In this document: positions 1 through 27,562 of the stretch, piece after piece | How positions within the stretch are numbered: the first letter of the stretch is position 1 | How the letters are laid out: each line of letters begins with the position of its first letter | NCBI GenBank assembly: GCA_028682915.1 | Contig: JAJRAN010000076.1 | Coordinates: forward strand, 1 to 50,650 | Reading direction: 5' to 3' | Origin: Methanomassiliicoccales archaeon | GTDB lineage: Archaea > Thermoplasmatota > Thermoplasmata > Methanomassiliicoccales > UBA472 | Length of the DNA stretch: 50,650 nt | The notes under the pieces: model-generated | Seen by the model: the letters and a program-made list of their open reading frames with translations, nothing else | Database searches by the model: none | Told to the model about the DNA's origin: nothing | Made by a program: the position numbers and the translations under genes

Positions 1-19
1 AATGCCAGGATAGGCACTG

Positions 20-58
20 GGCTACTTTCAGCCCACTCCCCCCTCCACCCCTTTATAC
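20..58 (+). promoter_or_regulatory. Promoter of the RadA-like gene: ACTTTC box (24-29), C-rich tract, TATA-like TTTATAC (52-58)
   Basis: 30/39 identical, ungapped, to 2753-2791 upstream of the polB2 operon; TATA-like element about 35 nt before the ATG at 92. Confidence 0.75.
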
Positions 59-91
59 GCCGGAGCGCAAGGGGGTACATAGGGGAGGCGA

Positions 92-838
92 ATGAGCCAA
101 TATCTAGAAGCGGACGCGCCCGGCTCCGGGGCGGTGAGCGTCGAGGCCAACAGGGAGCTGATACAGACGCGCCCGCAGCGGCGGCTGAGCACGTCCGTCA
201 AGGCGCTCGACGACTTCATCGGGGGGTTCCCCTCCTCCCAGGTCACGCTGATCGACTCCTCGGACCGCCTGGTGCTCGACATCGTCCACCTCCTCTGCGT
301 CAACCAGGTGCTGGAGGAGGGCCGGGACGTGGTATGGGTGGACGGGGGGAACTCGGTGAACCCCTACGCCCTAACCAGCCTGTGCAAGCGCTTCCGGGTG
401 CGCTCGGGCGAGGTGCTGGAGAGCGTGAACGTGTCCCGCGCCTTCACCGCCTACCAGCTCGTGACCTTGATAGAGGAGATGATGGAGGCGGAGGTCGCCA
501 GGACCAGGGCCGGCCTCCTGGTAGTGACGTCATTCCCCGACCTGTTCCAGGACAAGGACATGTGGTGGTCCGAGTCCCTGCAGCTGATGAAGCGGTGCCT
601 TGCCTGCATGCGCGAGGTGACCAGGAGGCACGGCACCGTCACCCTCGTCACCAACCTCGGCCTGTCTAAAATGCTGTACAAGAAGAGCCTGCGCAGCCTG
701 ATGTACTCCTCCGCGGACCAGGTGCTGCGTATCGAGAGCCAGCGCGCCGCGCTCCGGATCAGCGTGGTCAACGAGGGGCGCAGCATGCTCTATCACCCCG
801 TCCCCTACTACCAGCGCACCCTGGACGAGTTCCGGTGA
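92..838 (+). CDS. RadA/Rad51-like paralog lacking Walker A (PolB2-associated, ImuA-like) with C-terminal PIP-box-like motif
   Basis: RecA-fold signatures LSTSVKALDDFIGG, VVWVDGGNS, VSRAFTAYQL; P-loop position reads IDSSDRL (no GxxxxGK[ST]); ends QRTLDEF; RBS GGGGAGG. Confidence 0.8.
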   Translation: MSQYLEADAPGSGAVSVEANRELIQTRPQRRLSTSVKALDDFIGGFPSSQVTLIDSSDRLVLDIVHLLCVNQVLEEGRDVVWVDGGNSVNPYALTSLCKRFRVRSGEVLESVNVSRAFTAYQLVTLIEEMMEAEVARTRAGLLVVTSFPDLFQDKDMWWSESLQLMKRCLACMREVTRRHGTVTLVTNLGLSKMLYKKSLRSLMYSSADQVLRIESQRAALRISVVNEGRSMLYHPVPYYQRTLDEFR

Positions 839-9887: not shown

Positions 9888-10031
9888 CCTCGAACCCTGG
9901 ATGTCTGAACGGCTATGCTTTGGCAAAAGTCTTTCGTTCCGGAAGATGACGATCGACCACCTAGAGCGAGGATGACCGGCGCTCGCGATTGTCCCCTAAT
10001 GTTCTTCTTCTCGTCGATGAATTCGGAAGGC

Positions 10032-10283
10032 GTGGTCTTTCCCAGGGAAGTGCTGAGCCAGCTCAAATGGGGTCCGGCCGGGGGGCTGGAAAGGGCCGAG
10101 GTAACCTACCTGCACCGAGGCGCCCCCGGCGACGAGATGACGGTCATAGGCTCGGAGATCACCGAGCTGGAGCGCTCCTTCTTCTGCACCAGCGAGAGCA
10201 AGATCCCCTACCACCGGATCCGCAGGATATTGCTGGACGGGAGCGTCCTCTACGACTCGAGCTTGAGGAAGGGCAAGGAATAG
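10032..10283 (+). CDS. DUF504 / MJ1316-like small protein
   Basis: REVLSQLKW, YLHRGAP, IPYHRI; GTG start after GGAAGG. Confidence 0.75.
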   Translation: MVFPREVLSQLKWGPAGGLERAEVTYLHRGAPGDEMTVIGSEITELERSFFCTSESKIPYHRIRRILLDGSVLYDSSLRKGKE

Positions 10284-10295
10284 GTTTGCAGCGGG

Positions 10296-10940
10296 TCAGC
10301 GCGGCTCGTTGCAGTTGGGGCAGGTGCGCATGAAGGACGGATACATCACCCCGCACTTCTTGCACTTCACCATCTCCGTCTTCTTAGGCTGCTCGGGCAC
10401 CTGTTCCTCCTGTCTTGGGGGAGCTGCGGCGGGTGGAGTCTGTGGCGCGGGTGGCGCGCCCTGCGTCTGACCTTGCGCGGGGGGTTGACCGGTCGCCCCG
10501 GTCTGATAGCTTCCCGTTGGATAGGGCTGATAGTTGGGCTGGAAGACATCCCTCAGGCGGATGTAGGATAGCAGGAGCAGCACGCCCGGGACCAAGGCCA
10601 GGAACAGCCCCACGATCGCCCAAAGGACGAGCCAGTTCGCGGCGACCTGGAACTTGCCTTGGTCGACGTTGTCGAAGAAGTGCTTCTTGAGGAAATAGAG
10701 CACGATGAAGTAGACCACACCACATGCCAGGATGTACCCGGCCCAGAAGGCCGCCCAAGAGGATTCGATGGTGAAGAAGGAGACTATCCCGCTGATGATG
10801 TACAATATCCCAAGCAGGCCCATTACCCATTGCGTCCACCATGCGATCTCCCTGGACTCCACCACTGGTGCGGGGAGCCAAGGCGGTCCTGCGCTCTTCG
10901 CCATGAACGGCAGGTTGAGGTTGTCAAGTTCGTGTTTCAT
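10296..10940 (-). CDS. Membrane protein with Pro/Gln-rich linker and C-terminal zinc ribbon
   Basis: Three to four TM helices; CKKC...CPNC at C-terminus. Confidence 0.7.
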   Translation of the reverse strand: MKHELDNLNLPFMAKSAGPPWLPAPVVESREIAWWTQWVMGLLGILYIISGIVSFFTIESSWAAFWAGYILACGVVYFIVLYFLKKHFFDNVDQGKFQVAANWLVLWAIVGLFLALVPGVLLLLSYIRLRDVFQPNYQPYPTGSYQTGATGQPPAQGQTQGAPPAPQTPPAAAPPRQEEQVPEQPKKTEMVKCKKCGVMYPSFMRTCPNCNEPR

Positions 10941-11168
10941 CTATCCCATCCCCTTCGAATCGAAATCGCGGTCGAACCGCTGATAATTGGAAGAGCATGG
11001 CAATATATGAATCTTATCAATGGCCAGCTATTCGATGATAATTATATGGTGCCTCGCAATAATCAGGGGATTCGATAACTCTTGAGACCGCACCAGGATG
11101 TTCGATGCTAGGCCCTATAGATTTATATAATGGCCCAAGACTACAACGGCCCGAAAGAAAGTGAAGCG

Positions 11169-11954
11169 ATGAAGTCTAATGATTTCAAGAACCTCTATGA
11201 CCAGCTGAAAACCCCTTCCGATGTAAAACGCCTCGCCAAGGAATTGTCCTTGGACGAAGAGCTTCTGACGGTCATCTACACCCAGCGAACCGTGCGGGAC
11301 ACGACCAAGAAATTCTATCGCGTCCAAAGGCACGCCCCCCGGATCCTCAGCGAATGGAAGGGCGGCCGGAGCATGCTCTCCCTGTCGGAGAAGTTCGAGT
11401 TCCCGCCCATGCTCATGGGCCTGATGATATTCCAGGCAAACGGCTGCTCCAAGAAGCAGTTCTGGAAGCTGGTCCGCGAGCCGCATAACATATCCGATAA
11501 GCGAGTCAGGCGCGAGATCGAGGAGATCACCCGCGAGGATTGCATCTACTCCCCTTGGGGAACCGAGCTGCAGTACAAGCGGGGGACCTGGGGCGAAAGC
11601 CAGCTCGAGTCCTGGCTGAAGCGGCACAAATTGACGTACAAGACCGAGAAGGACCTGCGCGGCGAGTTCCCCAAGACGCCTGACTGCTTATTGGACGAGC
11701 CCATCCGCGTGAACGGTTGGGAGATCAACTGGATTGAGTCCAAGGCGTCGTTCGGGGACAAGGTGGAGATAAACAAGAACGTGCGCAAGCAGCTCGAGCC
11801 TTACACCGAGCTGTTCGGCGAGGGCCTCGTGGTCTATTGGTTCGGCTTCGTGGACGAGATCGAGAGCCCGGAGGGCATATACATCACCGATTCGTCCCTG
11901 CTCCACATGGACTGCCAGGTGCTCAGCTCGGAGTGCAAGAGACCTTTATTATAG
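11169..11954 (+). CDS. CDIN1/C15orf41-like (TPD domain) PD-(D/E)xK nuclease
   Basis: G..GE..L, KTPDCLL, WIESKASFGD, Q...Y..LFGEGLVVYWFG; start at 11169 preferred because TTTATATA lies at 11122-11129. Confidence 0.8.
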   Translation: MKSNDFKNLYDQLKTPSDVKRLAKELSLDEELLTVIYTQRTVRDTTKKFYRVQRHAPRILSEWKGGRSMLSLSEKFEFPPMLMGLMIFQANGCSKKQFWKLVREPHNISDKRVRREIEEITREDCIYSPWGTELQYKRGTWGESQLESWLKRHKLTYKTEKDLRGEFPKTPDCLLDEPIRVNGWEINWIESKASFGDKVEINKNVRKQLEPYTELFGEGLVVYWFGFVDEIESPEGIYITDSSLLHMDCQVLSSECKRPLL

Positions 11955-11974: not shown

Positions 11975-12958
11975 ATGGCCATGGAGCCCGTCTCCGCTAG
12001 CGCCCTGGAGAGATTCGGGTACTGCCCGCTGAGCTGGTGGCTCGCTCTGCGCTCCGACGTCACCTCCAAGCAGCTGGAGGAGGGCGACAAGGAGCATTCG
12101 GCCGTGGCCAATGATCTGGTCGAGATCGTGGAGAAGGAACGGACCGCCCGCGGTTGGGAGCGGATCGTGCTCGCCTTCTCCGTGGTGGCCACCGTCCTGG
12201 CCTTGATCGGGATCACCTTGATGAGCGAGGGCAACGGCCAGCAGCTGAGCGTGGTCCTGGGCGCCCTGTCCATCGTGTGGATTGTGGCGGCCCTGCTGTT
12301 CCTGTTCCGTTCCGCGTCGGTGAAGGACAAGAAGGAGCGGTCCCGGGCGCAGCAGATTGTTGCTGGCTTTGCCATCGTGGCCATGGTCATCGCCCTCAAT
12401 GCCGTATCCATCCTCAACGTCAATCCGGACCTGGCCTTCGTGGTGGAGGTCATCGCCCTGTTGTGGCTGATGGCCGCATCCTTGGCGCTGTACGTCTCCA
12501 TACGCTCGGTCAGGATGGCCAGGGAGATCAGGGAGAAGAGGGACATCCAGGGCGAGATCAAATATGTCGACGACGGCAAGCCCAGGATGCTGAGGTCCGA
12601 GCGCCTTGGTCTGCAGGGCAGGCCCGATTACGTCCTGGAGATAGAGGGCGAGATGGTCCCGGTGGAGATAAAGAGCGGCCGCACCCCCAAGGGCCCGCTC
12701 TTCTCCCACATCCTTCAGGTGGCAGCTTACTGCGTGCTTCTGGAGGAGGAGGGGCAGAAGGTCACACATGGGATCCTCCGTTACGATGAGGCGGAGCACG
12801 AGATCGAATACAACCAGGACCTGCGCAGGATGGTCCTGTCCAAGCTGGAGGAGATGCGCGTCCTCATGAGGAGCGGGGACGTGCACCGCAACCACCATCG
12901 CCCGGGCAAGTGCCGCTCCTGCTCCAGGCGGGAAGGCTGCCCTGAGCGCCTGGCCTGA
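11975..12958 (+). CDS. Cas4/RecB-family nuclease with 4Fe-4S ligands and four inserted transmembrane helices
   Basis: SASALERFGYCP, G...H, GRPDY, VEIKS, QVAAY, KCRSCSRREGC; four hydrophobic segments of about 20 aa between the first Cys and the nuclease core. Confidence 0.82.
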   Translation: MAMEPVSASALERFGYCPLSWWLALRSDVTSKQLEEGDKEHSAVANDLVEIVEKERTARGWERIVLAFSVVATVLALIGITLMSEGNGQQLSVVLGALSIVWIVAALLFLFRSASVKDKKERSRAQQIVAGFAIVAMVIALNAVSILNVNPDLAFVVEVIALLWLMAASLALYVSIRSVRMAREIREKRDIQGEIKYVDDGKPRMLRSERLGLQGRPDYVLEIEGEMVPVEIKSGRTPKGPLFSHILQVAAYCVLLEEEGQKVTHGILRYDEAEHEIEYNQDLRRMVLSKLEEMRVLMRSGDVHRNHHRPGKCRSCSRREGCPERLA

Positions 12959-24415: not shown

Positions 24416-25540
24416 GTGCTGAGCTTGCGCGTGGCTGGCATATGCAGGGACATCAACTGGCCTGAAGGCCTGCGCGGCGAGGTCATCGAAGAGATCGAGT
24501 CGGAGGAGGGCATGTTGCAGAGGCTCTCCAAACCAGTCCCCCGGTCGGCGTTCATAAACGCCATGGCCTTGATATTGATCGCGGTCAGCATCATCCTCAT
24601 CCTGATATTCCCCGCAGGCGTGATCGCATGGTTCATCGTCGCCTTCGTCCTCTATTCCTTCAATTTCATCATCCTTTTCCTGCCAACCACGAGGAAGGGG
24701 AAGCGAGACGAGAGCTGCCGCCGTACCATCGGCAGAGACTCGCTGGCACCGATAAATTACCTTCTAAAGAAGAAGAGAAAGCTCGCTGTGGAGGTGGGGC
24801 TTACCATGTTCCTAGGGGGAATGGTCCCCCTGGCACTGAGCTTCTTCGTCCTCTTCGGCATAGGGCTCCTGCTGGTCATCTACTTCGCATTCCTAGCTGT
24901 TACTCTGGACCCCTCGGTCGCTTGGCCAATAATAATCCAGGTGCTGGTCATCATCCTGTTCTTCATAGCGATGGTGCTGATCAGGCCGGACACGCAAGGC
25001 TTGACCAGGATAGCCAGATCGTTCCATAACCGTTACGAGGGGGCCCGCCAGAGGAGCAGGTGGTACACCGCTGCCATCGTCCTCGGAATCGGCCTCGTCG
25101 CCGTGGGCTTGTCGATGCTCCTCGTGGGGGCCATCCTCCTTACCGGTGGCGTGTTGGGGGAGGTCATAACCGAGGGCGGGCGGACAGGCGTCAGCTTGCT
25201 CCTGATCGCCTTAGTCTTCGTTGTGGAACTGGTGGTGATGCGCCATTTCCAGGCGGTATCGAGCCGGAAGATGGCTAGGACGTTGATCAGAAACAGGTTG
25301 GAGATACTGAGGAAGGATGTGCTCGAGCCCCTGACCGCCCTGCTCGACCAAGGCAAGTACGCAGATGAAGAAGGCTATGACAAGGAGGAGTTCGAACGCA
25401 TCAAGACCAACTTCTTCAACGTGGTCATCTACGCGGTCTACGAGCTCAACCTCTTCGGGTACTCATCCGTCTACATCGTAGGGCCCAATGTCAAGTATCT
25501 GATCGATGAGAGGGTCCTCCCATATGTCGGCGGGGTTTGA
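24416..25540 (+). CDS. Multi-pass membrane protein of unknown function
   Basis: About seven hydrophobic helices; TTAATAC at about 24380; start could be 24512. Confidence 0.7.
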   Translation: MLSLRVAGICRDINWPEGLRGEVIEEIESEEGMLQRLSKPVPRSAFINAMALILIAVSIILILIFPAGVIAWFIVAFVLYSFNFIILFLPTTRKGKRDESCRRTIGRDSLAPINYLLKKKRKLAVEVGLTMFLGGMVPLALSFFVLFGIGLLLVIYFAFLAVTLDPSVAWPIIIQVLVIILFFIAMVLIRPDTQGLTRIARSFHNRYEGARQRSRWYTAAIVLGIGLVAVGLSMLLVGAILLTGGVLGEVITEGGRTGVSLLLIALVFVVELVVMRHFQAVSSRKMARTLIRNRLEILRKDVLEPLTALLDQGKYADEEGYDKEEFERIKTNFFNVVIYAVYELNLFGYSSVYIVGPNVKYLIDERVLPYVGGV

Positions 25541-25603
25541 ATCGCTGACTAACTATGACATTAACAAAAGGCTATTAGCCCTCGTCCTCCTTTTGCCGCT
25601 CAC

Positions 25604-25801
25604 ATGGGAAAAAAGGAGCAAGTGGCCTCGATCCTGCAGATGATTGGCGGGAACGCGGACCAGGCCGAGAAGGTCGTGGACGAGGTGGACCGTTTCTTCG
25701 ATAACCTGAACGCGGAGATCGAGGACTGGAAGATCTCCATGGAGGAGTTCAAGGACGGGACTAGGATCTTCGCCAGGGTGCAGGTTCTCATCAAGAAGTA
25801 G
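25604..25801 (+). CDS. Microprotein (65 aa), paralog of 27597-27770
   Basis: Host-like codon usage; LNAEIEDWKISMEEFKDGTRI aligns with the microprotein at 27597-27770. Confidence 0.75.
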   Translation: MGKKEQVASILQMIGGNADQAEKVVDEVDRFFDNLNAEIEDWKISMEEFKDGTRIFARVQVLIKK

Positions 25802-25808
25802 GTGTGCG

Positions 25809-26726
25809 ATGGCCGATAAGAAGAGGGTCGAGCCGGAGGAGGACGACAAATGCACCCATCCCCTGATATGCGCCGAGGAATGGGAGGACTCGGAGGGCGC
25901 GAAGGTCATTGCCGAGTTCCACAAGGATGGGGGGCCGGACGAGGAGAGGCGGGTCGAGGAGGACCTGGACGCTTTCGAGAGATACTGGCAGAAGAAGCAG
26001 GGCATCAATTTCCAAGGGGAGTATCACAAGGAGGGCGCTCCCTTCTTGGAGGAACCCTCCGGATGGGACGGTCATAGACCACGCAGCCAAGAGGCCGTAG
26101 GGGAAGCCCGGCCTGCTACCCAGCCAAGTCTAGCGACCGTATTCGAAGAAGAGGAGAAGCCTGAAAACCTCGCGGCAAGAGAGGCGTCAGAACCGGCCAT
26201 ACTCACCGATGCCGGCATTGTGAAGGGCGAGGCTACTTTGGCCCCATCACCACCGTTGGAGCATGGGAAGGAACCCAAGGAGCCTTTGAAACTCACCGAG
26301 GTCGTGGACATCAACACCCTGGAGGTGATCAGCTATTGGATCTTCCGTGTAGCCTTCGGAAAGGAGCTGCACATACCTATCAAGAAGGAGGGCCTGGCGG
26401 ACATCGACGTCCACATCAAAAACAAGGAAGTGATCGTGAACACCAACCAGCTCTACTTCGCCTTCCCAGAGTTGGTGGTCTGGCACATAACCTATACCCA
26501 TAAGGGCAGGCCGATATTGGAGATAGGCCGCGGGGTGAAGAAGGGCATGAAGGTGCACCGCCTGAACGCCGTGCGGTTGCTGATGGAGGTATGGATGGGC
26601 AGCAGGAAGGCGGAGAAGGCTCCCAAGAAGACCGGCAAGGGCGCATCCGCACCAATACAGGGCGGGAGTAAGAGCCAGAAGGCAAAAGACAACCAGGACC
26701 TAAAGGAGAAAGGGGACATCACCTGA
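25809..26726 (+). CDS. Hypothetical protein: acidic low-complexity N-terminal half, beta-rich C-terminal domain
   Basis: RBS AGGTG; TGATG overlap with the kinase gene. Confidence 0.7.
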   Translation: MADKKRVEPEEDDKCTHPLICAEEWEDSEGAKVIAEFHKDGGPDEERRVEEDLDAFERYWQKKQGINFQGEYHKEGAPFLEEPSGWDGHRPRSQEAVGEARPATQPSLATVFEEEEKPENLAAREASEPAILTDAGIVKGEATLAPSPPLEHGKEPKEPLKLTEVVDINTLEVISYWIFRVAFGKELHIPIKKEGLADIDVHIKNKEVIVNTNQLYFAFPELVVWHITYTHKGRPILEIGRGVKKGMKVHRLNAVRLLMEVWMGSRKAEKAPKKTGKGASAPIQGGSKSQKAKDNQDLKEKGDIT

Positions 26727-27562
26727 TGAGCAAAGAGCACGAGGAAGCGGACCACCTCCAATCCCACAGGGAGTATTTCCGAGAGGTGGTTAGGAAGATT
26801 CATCAGATATCCGCCCAGAGCTTCGGGCTGAGTCAAGTGTCCGTTCATCCTCTCGGCTCGGGTGGGTCGCGCCTTTCGATTCCGGTGAAGATAACCGGGA
26901 CGGATGGGAATGGCAAGAGCACGAAGCTCTTCGGAAAGATCCTTGGCAACGCCGATATCATGACTGCCAGGACCATCCAGACCGTGAAGAACCTATATCT
27001 GCAAATGAACGCGCATGACCCGATGTTCGACTTCGCTCGTGACACCCGGGACATGGCCCTACACCAGTACAGCACCATGAAGGCCATCTACAATCTGGGC
27101 ATCCCCACGGCCAAACCTTTGGGCTGCTACCAGCTGAACGACGTGCTCTGGCTGCTGGTCTATGAGTTCCTTGATGCCAGGCCGGTCACGGACATTGGTA
27201 GGATGTCGCTGGAGCAGATCGACGAGGTGTTCGGTTGGCTCAAGCTGATGCACAAGAAGGGGATCCATCATGGCGACATCAAGCCAGACAATGTGATGTT
27301 GGGGGACAAGCTCTACATCTTGGATGTGGGGAGATATCTCGAGGAAGCGCCCCAGTCGCAGAAGCAGGCCTACGACCTCGCCTGCCAGATCGCGTCGTTC
27401 CTTCCGTTCCAGCCTGCGGACAAGATAGTCAGCGTGGCCAGGAGACATTACTCCAAGGAGGACATGAGGGCGGCCTCGGAATACCTCGATCTGATCCAAA
27501 GGCGGATGGACCTGAAGTTCAATGACGAGACAAAGAGCGAGCTGCTGCGCCTGATGCAATAA
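26726..27562 (+). CDS. Protein-kinase-like enzyme (RIO1/Kdo/Bud32-like)
   Basis: LFGKIL (ATP-binding Lys), GIPTAKP, LVYEFL, catalytic loop HGDIKPDN, DVG. Confidence 0.85.
   Translation: MSKEHEEADHLQSHREYFREVVRKIHQISAQSFGLSQVSVHPLGSGGSRLSIPVKITGTDGNGKSTKLFGKILGNADIMTARTIQTVKNLYLQMNAHDPMFDFARDTRDMALHQYSTMKAIYNLGIPTAKPLGCYQLNDVLWLLVYEFLDARPVTDIGRMSLEQIDEVFGWLKLMHKKGIHHGDIKPDNVMLGDKLYILDVGRYLEEAPQSQKQAYDLACQIASFLPFQPADKIVSVARRHYSKEDMRAASEYLDLIQRRMDLKFNDETKSELLRLMQ

Follow-up and report, generated by a model that had tools for sequence, protein, structure and literature searches.

The contig JAJRAN010000076.1 of a Methanomassiliicoccales archaeon (assembly GCA_028682915.1), analysed here as a whole stretch of 50,650 nt on the forward strand (positions 1 to 50,650; hereafter the window), carries at positions 11975..12958 a gene whose product belongs to the Cas4 family (TIGR00372/PF01930) according to the curated cut-offs. 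A block of four predicted transmembrane (TM) helices divides the protein into two halves, both of which are predicted to lie on the cytoplasmic side of the membrane. We consider it probable that the gene encodes an integral-membrane, cytoplasm-facing nuclease of the Cas4 family which works without CRISPR.

The usual picture of Cas4 is that of a small, soluble protein assisting in CRISPR adaptation, and what 'solo' Cas4 genes do is, to our knowledge, largely unknown. The comparisons described below point to a whole lineage of Cas4 enzymes that appears to be built into the membrane by an insert respecting the fold. The architecture had been taken as apparently uncharacterised in an earlier note made from the sequence alone, and this is in agreement with our literature search: no published membrane-inserted Cas4 was found, with the proviso that the 2012 survey of PD-(D/E)XK proteins (PMC3424549) placed its TM screen in the supplements and may record TM-bearing DUF83 members there. 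The word 'transmembrane' does not occur in the accessible text of the Cas4 phylogenomics paper PMC5704561, and neither 'membrane' nor 'transmembrane' occurs in that of the paper on Solo-Cas4 of Methanosarcina mazei (PMC12501428).

Cas4 signature, membrane insert and predicted fold

Translation of the stretch 11975-12958 (+) gives 327 aa. A TTG start at 11837 was rejected, since a gene starting there would share sequence with the upstream gene and since the N-termini of the 57 aligned homologues coincide with the ATG at 11975. The curated Cas4 model of NCBI (TIGR00372) matched residues 162-323 with 93.2 bits (cut-off 65), PF01930 matched with 46.8 bits (E 4.4e-12; cut-off 22.7) and PF12705 with 52.3 bits (E 1e-13; cut-off 22), the C-terminal part of the protein covering positions 106-247 of the last model. 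When the first 60 residues were scanned alone, they matched PF12705 positions 2-45 weakly (E 0.023) and no NCBIfam model. Matches to MFS_1, DUF1616 and similar Pfam families were below the cut-off and were read as hydrophobic composition. In PADLOC-DB 2.0, the protein was recognized by Cas4 models (best 4.3e-27), by the Cas4-like part of Cas1 fusion models and weakly by DruK (5e-6).

The search for relatives returned 996 homologues at E<=0.001, and those named in the databases are called 'CRISPR-associated protein Cas4' of Methanomassiliicoccales. The nearest clusters in the ESM Atlas are Thermoplasmatota Cas4-family proteins of 382-399 aa, and a homologue from the cultured species Methanomassiliicoccus luminyensis (P0097) is 51% identical. 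A profile of the 57 homologues aligned with the solved chains 8d3l (8.8e-8), 4ic1 (4.4e-7), 4r5q and 7mi4, and a weak second alignment placed query residues 7-49 on the Cys/His N-terminus of 8d3l.

The four cysteines predicted to bind the iron-sulfur (Fe-S) cluster and the RecB motifs are intact, as had been claimed: the translation contains Y16-C17-P18, P217-D218, E231-I232-K233, Q248...Y252 and C313-x2-C316-x5-C322. Nine of these and neighbouring residues (Y16, C17, G37, D218, K233, Y252, C313, C316 and C322) are invariant in the 57 homologues, which share 27-91% identity. H41 and Q248 are at least 90% conserved, and E231 varies conservatively, being mostly E or D. The role of H41 as a metal ligand is putative and is modelled on His62 of SSO0001, as described in the accessible part of PMC13621843. 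The parts of the gene are as follows (strand +, residue numbers of the protein in brackets).

11975..12958, +: nuclease gene of the membrane-embedded Cas4 family, 327 aa, stop codon 12956-12958
11975..12154, +: predicted cytoplasmic N-terminal piece (residues 1-60) with S7-A8...E12...Y16-C17-P18-L19-S20-W21 and G37-x3-H41
12023-12025, +: predicted cluster ligand Cys17, in the N-terminal piece
12095-12097, +: putative metal-ligand His41, in G37-x3-H41 of the N-terminal piece
12140..12331, +: hairpin repeat 1 (residues 56-119): predicted TM1, short outer loop, TM2
12161-12223, +: predicted TM1 (residues 63-83)
12245-12310, +: predicted TM2 (residues 91-112)
12332..12523, +: hairpin repeat 2 (residues 120-183): lysine/arginine (K/R)-rich, predicted cytoplasmic loop, TM3, short outer loop, TM4
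12356-12412, +: predicted TM3 (residues 128-146)
12434-12499, +: predicted TM4 (residues 154-175)
12500..12589, +: basic helical linker (residues 176-205), predicted to extend TM4 to the core
12590..12955, +: predicted PD-(D/E)XK catalytic core and Fe-S staple (residues 206-327), defined by invariant columns and matches to Cas4 structures
12626-12628, 12665-12667 and 12671-12673, +: core residues D218, E231 and K233, respectively, to which Q248, Y252 and H304-R305-N306-H307 are added
12911-12940, +: C313-x2-C316-x5-C322, predicted cysteines of the Fe-S staple

Four hydrophobic segments at about residues 63-83, 91-112, 128-146 and 154-175 form a block of 113 aa (residues 63-175). The Kyte-Doolittle maxima over 19 residues are 2.3-2.8 (2.7-2.8 for TM1-2 and 2.3-2.5 for TM3-4), which bears out the four TM helices of about 110 aa proposed between the first cluster cysteine and the core. 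The insert does part this cysteine from the core, but the N-terminal piece also holds the helix with G37-x3-H41, which the earlier description had left out.

The distribution of charged residues is consistent with this count of helices. The loops 84-90 and 147-153 contain no K or R, the middle loop contains five and residues 176-215 contain eleven. In the 57 homologues, the outer loops carry on average 0.3 K+R vs 3.9 in the middle loop and 6.7 in the linker, and the positive-inside pattern was also found in 17/17 relatives with two TM helices (2-TM) and in 13/13 relatives with eight (8-TM). Both halves of the protein are predicted from this pattern to lie on the K/R-rich, cytoplasmic side, as would be expected if an even number of helices returns the chain to the side from which it started.

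The two hairpins proved to be homologous (hhalign E 2.9e-14 over 61 columns); the controls gave 0.0029 for the reversed profile and 0.12-0.5 for eight column shuffles. Among the 57 homologues, identity amounts to 50-58% in the TM columns, 23-41% in the loops and 69% in the core, and the TM columns are conserved to the same degree as the N-terminal piece. The small or polar TM positions A72, T73, G79, W102, N142, E158, A161, A168 and Y173 are fixed, and the conserved positions of repeat 2 are N142, E158, A161, L162, W164, L165, A168 and Y173. Comparison with two congeners gave a ratio of nonsynonymous to synonymous substitution rates (dN/dS) of 0.12 overall, 0.135 and 0.232 for the insert and 0.088 and 0.071 for the core. 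The insert is under purifying selection, as is every part of the gene. The repeated and conserved hairpins probably do more than anchor the protein and may serve, for example, in helix packing or self-association.

A structure predicted with AlphaFold2 from the alignment of 57 homologues had a mean predicted local distance difference test (pLDDT) score of 80.9 and a predicted template modelling (pTM) score of 0.72, with pLDDT >90 for residues 210-300. It contains helices at residues 32-83, 88-114, 119-144 and 151-189. In the model, the G37/H41 helix passes unbroken into TM1 (32-83) and TM4 passes into the linker (151-189). All top hits of a Foldseek search with the model were Cas4 chains. VIA-align superposed the model on the Cas4 part of 7mi4_A with Z 19.6 and a root-mean-square deviation (rmsd) of 2.4 Å over 177 residues (model 1..327 on chain 5..212), and on 8d3l_I with Z 17.9 and an rmsd of 2.4 Å over 174 residues (model 1..327 on chain 5..203 of 218). 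The Cas4 fold appears to be left whole by the insert because the superposition on solved Cas4 takes in the whole model, residues 1 to 327, and Cys17 would complete the cluster with C313, C316 and C322. The structure prediction that had been suggested as a check on the architecture has in this way returned a complete Cas4 fold with helical hairpins. An 8-TM relative modelled separately (pLDDT only 67.8) matched 7mi5_A with Z 18.4 (model 10..539 on Cas4). The TM part alone matched generic helical hairpins and bundles only (Z 8-10, within the chance range of the tool for helices). The prediction of a homodimer from two copies scored 0.16 (mark 0.42) and counts neither way.

The number of hairpins varies among the relatives. 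In a set of 151 representatives at 50% identity, 73 had both the N-terminal Cys and the C-terminal cluster motifs, and a crude hydropathy count gave two helices in 19, four in 30 and eight in 13 of them (total 62). The other 11 of the 73 were assigned 0, 1, 5 or 7 helices, and those inspected were miscounts or loose motif matches. About 45 further representatives have about 175 aa, one N-terminal helix and no N-terminal Cys. These match the C-halves of split forms, which were the next-best matches in the representative search: in a metagenome-assembled genome of Anaerolineales (locus L080, 2768-3519), a gene for a 78-aa N-half precedes that for the C-half with a stop/start overlap, and archaeal split pairs of family f24 were found at L082 841-1640 and L083 609-1420. 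In the split forms, the N-half is made up of the Cys/His piece with one TM helix, whereas one TM helix and the core constitute the C-half. An even number of helices seems to be needed because 62/73 proteins have 2, 4 or 8 helices and the split forms put one helix into each half. As judged from the sequences, one, two or four hairpins, or a hairpin shared by two chains, would in every case bring the two halves to one and the same membrane face.

Four hairpin matches were found in 10/13 of the 8-TM proteins, with the order h1-h2-h1-h2 in 5/13, which suggests that the 8-TM insert arose by tandem duplication of the four-helix unit. A quick tree of 137 core domains (13/150 rows were dropped, since the motifs were absent), in which 76/134 forks are open and the class labels are contaminated by truncated proteins, suggests a grouping of the split forms separate from the fused ones and a scatter of the 8-TM forms among the 4-TM forms.

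The hairpins might also be an assembly module that forms a membrane ring over a Cas4 toroid, i.e. a DNA conduit coupled to the nuclease. The conserved small or polar TM positions A72 to A168 listed above speak for such a role, as does the growth of the insert by hairpin duplication to eight helices, which goes beyond the requirements of an anchor. Large oligomers are known among soluble Cas4 proteins, an apparent 318-kDa one in M. mazei Solo-Cas4 and a toroidal decamer in the S. solfataricus protein, the latter as cited in the accessible part of PMC12501428. However, the outer loops are only about 7-12 residues long and carry no domain, and the structural matches of the TM part stay within the generic range given above. 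We therefore give this assembly little credence. A wider form of the idea, in which the ring and toroid would be an archaeal machine threading membrane-crossing DNA into the nuclease, either for import (food, recombination) or for exclusion of entering DNA, encoded by a core gene throughout Thermoplasmatota and, in bacteria, by a pair of genes, has likewise only a slim chance of being correct.

An artefact, i.e. a block that is not transmembrane, a chimeric assembly or a decaying gene, was also considered. The gene is covered in parts by contigs from three public DNA runs, no single contig spans the whole of it, and the TM helices were called from hydropathy. Against this, the contigs show no joints, full-length proteins of this architecture are encoded by 80 other genomes of the order and number in the hundreds among metagenomic sequences, helical hairpins were predicted in both models, purifying selection acts on every part of the gene, and the positive-inside pattern is consistent. 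The chance of an artefact, including the chimeric assembly that the earlier note had named as a possible refutation, is negligible.

Distribution and possible function

The distribution was examined in 151 sampled genomes of the order Methanomassiliicoccales and 401 of the phylum; the genome to which the window belongs is 93.7% complete. Relatives of the nuclease occur in 81/151 genomes of the order, nearly always as a single copy, and they are near-universal in six of its seven families (f1 45/46, f2 1/1, f3 4/4, f4 1/1, f5 10/10, f6 17/24 and f7 2/64). Cas1 was found in 53/151 genomes (f1 10/46, f3 0/4 and f7 27/64). The absence of cas1, cas2 and an array from the window had already been pointed out; no tandem array was indeed detected within it, and neither Cas1 nor Cas2 was matched in the whole 93.7%-complete genome, where PF01930 matches one gene only, that of the nuclease. 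The canonical Cas4 adjoining cas1 in the genomes G068 and G081 matches the nuclease only at about 1e-6, and no cas gene was found among 51 flanking open reading frames (ORFs) of 18 loci elsewhere in the phylum. The nuclease gene is uncoupled from Cas1 across the order. It is a single-copy core gene, vertically inherited with conserved synteny. In the phylum, an 8-TM query matched 279/401 genomes at E<=1e-10, a number which is an upper bound for the membrane forms, the matches having been inspected in part. Among viral contigs of IMG/VR, 24 pattern hits yielded 0 confirmed relatives.

As a separate observation, several genomes of f7 and f6 contain frames of 320-340 aa which match Cas1 weakly in two halves (about 2-107 and about 147-250; E 1e-7 to 1e-10). 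They are candidates for casposase-like genes or for a divergent solo Cas1.

The following mechanism can be proposed from the model and the sequence. The chain would start in the cytoplasm with two short helices bearing the cluster ligand Cys17, followed by the G37/H41 helix, which would run unbroken as TM1. The two homologous hairpins (TM1-2 and TM3-4) would each cross the membrane and return, and TM4 would extend as a basic helix to the β-sheet core with D218, E231, K233, Q248 and Y252. The N-terminal piece would dock on this core and close the Cas4 fold together with C313, C316 and C322, so that two long helices would keep the active site immediately beneath the inner membrane face. By analogy with the assayed Cas4 relatives, the enzyme may cleave DNA in a Mn2+/Mg2+-dependent manner. 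Its action on DNA ends or nicks would be limited to DNA lying at the membrane, which would be its substrate.

Island-type defence genes usually have a patchy distribution. A constitutive housekeeping nuclease, trimming or destroying linear or damaged DNA at the membrane, is the role towards which we lean, tentatively and with somewhat less than even confidence. It is favoured over dedicated defence because inheritance is vertical, single-copy and syntenic and because no defence or uptake partner was found. The gene appears to be neither an adaptive nor an island-type defence gene.

The earlier note had instead proposed a membrane-tethered exonuclease acting on DNA that crosses the membrane, either as an innate barrier to viral or plasmid DNA or in uptake processing. 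An active site held at the inner face of the membrane, as in the model, would suit this purpose. Cas4-family enzymes are held to act on free DNA ends, for which the accessible part of PMC12501428 gives partial support, and family f1 keeps the nuclease far more often than Cas1 (45/46 vs 10/46), leaving room for a barrier independent of CRISPR. On the other hand, pili, ComEC, HerA and TctA-like genes, for which a search had been advised, adjoin the nuclease neither in 20 loci of the order nor among the 51 flanking ORFs of the 18 other loci, where no known defence gene was seen either, and three neighbours in the window scanned against PADLOC-DB 2.0 had no match. The nuclease gene sits among housekeeping genes, the search of viral contigs confirmed no relative, and vertical single-copy inheritance with conserved synteny is unlike that of island-type defence genes. 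Moreover, there is no evident means of discriminating self from foreign DNA. The results do not favour the barrier or uptake role, which we regard as rather unlikely.

Several points weigh against our own view of a membrane-bound housekeeping enzyme. The nuclease activity, cluster binding, membrane insertion and topology of the family are predictions, the TM counts coming from a hydropathy script and not from a trained predictor. The closure of the cluster by Cys17 is drawn from aligned ranges, not from sulfur distances, and the housekeeping role from the phyletic pattern and the neighbours only. The gene is dispensable, being absent in 62/64 sampled f7 genomes and cleanly missing between the genes for the TPD-domain protein (see below) and GlmS in two f6 loci, and no conserved partner gene points to a pathway. 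Finally, family f24 lacks NurA (0/53) and has the nuclease (50/53), but f13 has both (NurA 13/14, nuclease 14/14).

NurA is the usual archaeal 5'-3' resection nuclease. The idea that the nuclease family substitutes for NurA found no support, as the two are not distributed in a cleanly complementary way. NurA (PF09376) was found in 5/151 genomes of the order, all of f7, and in 94/401 of the phylum; it was not found in the 87 genomes of f1-f6 searched. A HerA-type DUF87 model gave two strong matches elsewhere in the genome of the window, and it also matches in 14/14 control genomes. The Rad50 zinc hook had no match in this genome, and its model matches in only 3/14 controls. As a side observation, the archaeal HerA-NurA resection pair may be missing in the order.

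An active nuclease would mark some transaction of DNA at the archaeal membrane, one for which these organisms lack known machinery. The carriers include methanogens of wetlands and guts, and with M. luminyensis as a cultured carrier the question is open to experiment. The family is also a natural example of a soluble fold that seems to tolerate insertion, duplication and splitting at one loop.

The upstream TPD gene and other neighbours

The window is a housekeeping stretch, with genes for a RadB-like protein, ABC transporters, phosphoribosyltransferases, GlmS, a GlmU-like enzyme, GatB, AspRS, GlnA, POR and PPDK and with two tRNAs. The following features lie immediately upstream of the nuclease gene.

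11130..11954, +: gene for a TPD-domain (CDIN1/C15orf41-like) PD-(D/E)XK nuclease, 274 aa, PF14811 4.5e-45; not part of the unit described here
11945..11953, +: TATA-box-like AT-rich element TTTATTATA, with its centre about 26 nt upstream of the ATG; it overlaps the TPD stop codon

In 20/20 fetched loci of the order, the TPD gene is followed by the nuclease gene, the two facing glmS and the glmU-like gene in convergent orientation. The two nuclease genes lie on the same strand with a gap of 20 nt, which could mean a functional operon. The TPD gene is directly upstream in all 20 fetched loci, down to 35% identity, and lies <=300 nt upstream on the same strand in 79/81 matching genomes (20 fetched loci, 58 by coordinates and G000). 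The exceptions are G028 (a fragment, from a genome without a TPD match) and G081 (a weak canonical Cas4). However, glmS is an equally constant neighbour, and the TPD gene is present in 149/151 genomes of the order, including 62 f7 genomes without the nuclease, and in 226/401 genomes of the phylum. Conversely, the nuclease occurs without TPD in f24 (50/53 vs 0/53), f13 (14/14 vs 0/14), f9 (4/4 vs 0/4) and f18 (9/9 vs 0/9). At 22 loci outside the order, no TPD gene lies within 1.5 kb of the nuclease gene, and in 15/15 outside genomes holding both, the genes are on different contigs or about 1 Mb apart. The AT-rich box before the nuclease gene also argues against an operon. A functional two-nuclease operon is hence very unlikely, and the pairing is best read from these comparisons as an inherited gene order specific to Methanomassiliicoccales. 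TPD, the archaeal homologue of human CDIN1/C15orf41, is a core gene in its own right.

The element TTTATTATA is possibly the own promoter of the nuclease gene, which would then give a leaderless or short-leader mRNA. Judged by eye, several of the 20 related loci have a comparable AT-rich box at a distance of 25-40 nt in front of the gene. A 201-nt contig from a library labelled metatranscriptomic, and flagged as probably DNA, maps to the TPD gene only.

The neighbours in the 18 loci outside the order include ribosomal protein L15e (4 loci), IF-2B, metallo-β-lactamase-fold proteins, POR, Sir2 and the primase large subunit. The L15e gene is directly upstream of the nuclease in the 8-TM loci L050, L051, L055 and L057, which is probably lineage synteny.

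Some further features were noted. The product of the gene at 10296-10940 (-), of 214 aa, has hydrophobic segments, a region rich in Pro, Gln and Ala and, at the C-terminus, a CxxC...CxxC motif resembling a zinc ribbon; all its Pfam matches are below the cut-off, and in most loci of the order the gene keeps its synteny with the TPD gene. The small protein encoded at 9915-10283 (+), which is conserved in the same syntenic block, has a domain of the MJ1316 type ('RNA cyclic group end recognition'; PF04457, 6.9e-9). The stretch 24416-27562 (+) holds three ORFs in a row (374, 305 and 278 aa) that have a high GC content at third codon positions and no Pfam match at 1e-6. On one contig of another genome (G115:C55:24486-26644), two inverted copies of the TPD gene and the first approximately 200 codons of the nuclease gene face each other, an arrangement suggestive of a palindrome made in assembly or of an inverted duplication of recent date.

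Comparison with known systems

The nuclease resembles the CRISPR-associated Cas4 proteins (the Cas4-Cas1 fusion 7MI4/7MI5 and the type I-C proteins 8D3L/8D3Q) in the N-terminal Cys, the His helix, D...E-x-K, Q-x3-Y and C-x2-C-x5-C, and its model superposes on them at 2.4 Å over about 175 residues. In contrast to them, it has the 113-aa four-helix insert between the His helix and the first strand of the core, its genome has no cas1 or cas2 match and the window no array.

AdnAB/AddB nuclease domains, Dna2, Exo5 and MGME1 are all known to act on DNA ends. They share a related Fe-S/PD-(D/E)XK core fold and ranked just below Cas4 in the structural comparison (Exo5 7lw7 Z 13.9, AdnA 9np6 Z 13.5, MGME1 Z 11.3 and Dna2 5ean Z 10.7). 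However, these proteins are soluble, fused to or partnered with a helicase and devoid of a membrane insert, and the sequence models put the nuclease with Cas4.

The split membrane Cas4-like pairs (L080, L082 and L083) belong to the same family as the nuclease and differ from it in being two polypeptides, with the hairpin presumably formed between the chains. We found no publication on such split membrane-anchored pairs.

The Solo-Cas4 proteins (SSO0001, 4IC1; Pcal_0546, 4R5Q; and that of M. mazei) lie outside CRISPR-cas loci and have the four-cysteine motif, like the nuclease, whose model matched 4ic1_A with Z 12.9 and 4r5q_A with Z 9.7. According to the accessible part of PMC12501428, the M. 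mazei protein, the large oligomer of which was mentioned above, contains a [4Fe-4S] cluster, cleaves DNA in a Mn2+/Mg2+-dependent manner and is induced in the stationary phase. The known Solo-Cas4 proteins are soluble, of about 200-270 aa, and form large oligomers, unlike the membrane-embedded protein predicted here. As a Cas4-family gene located away from cas genes, the nuclease gene is itself a Solo-Cas4 gene.

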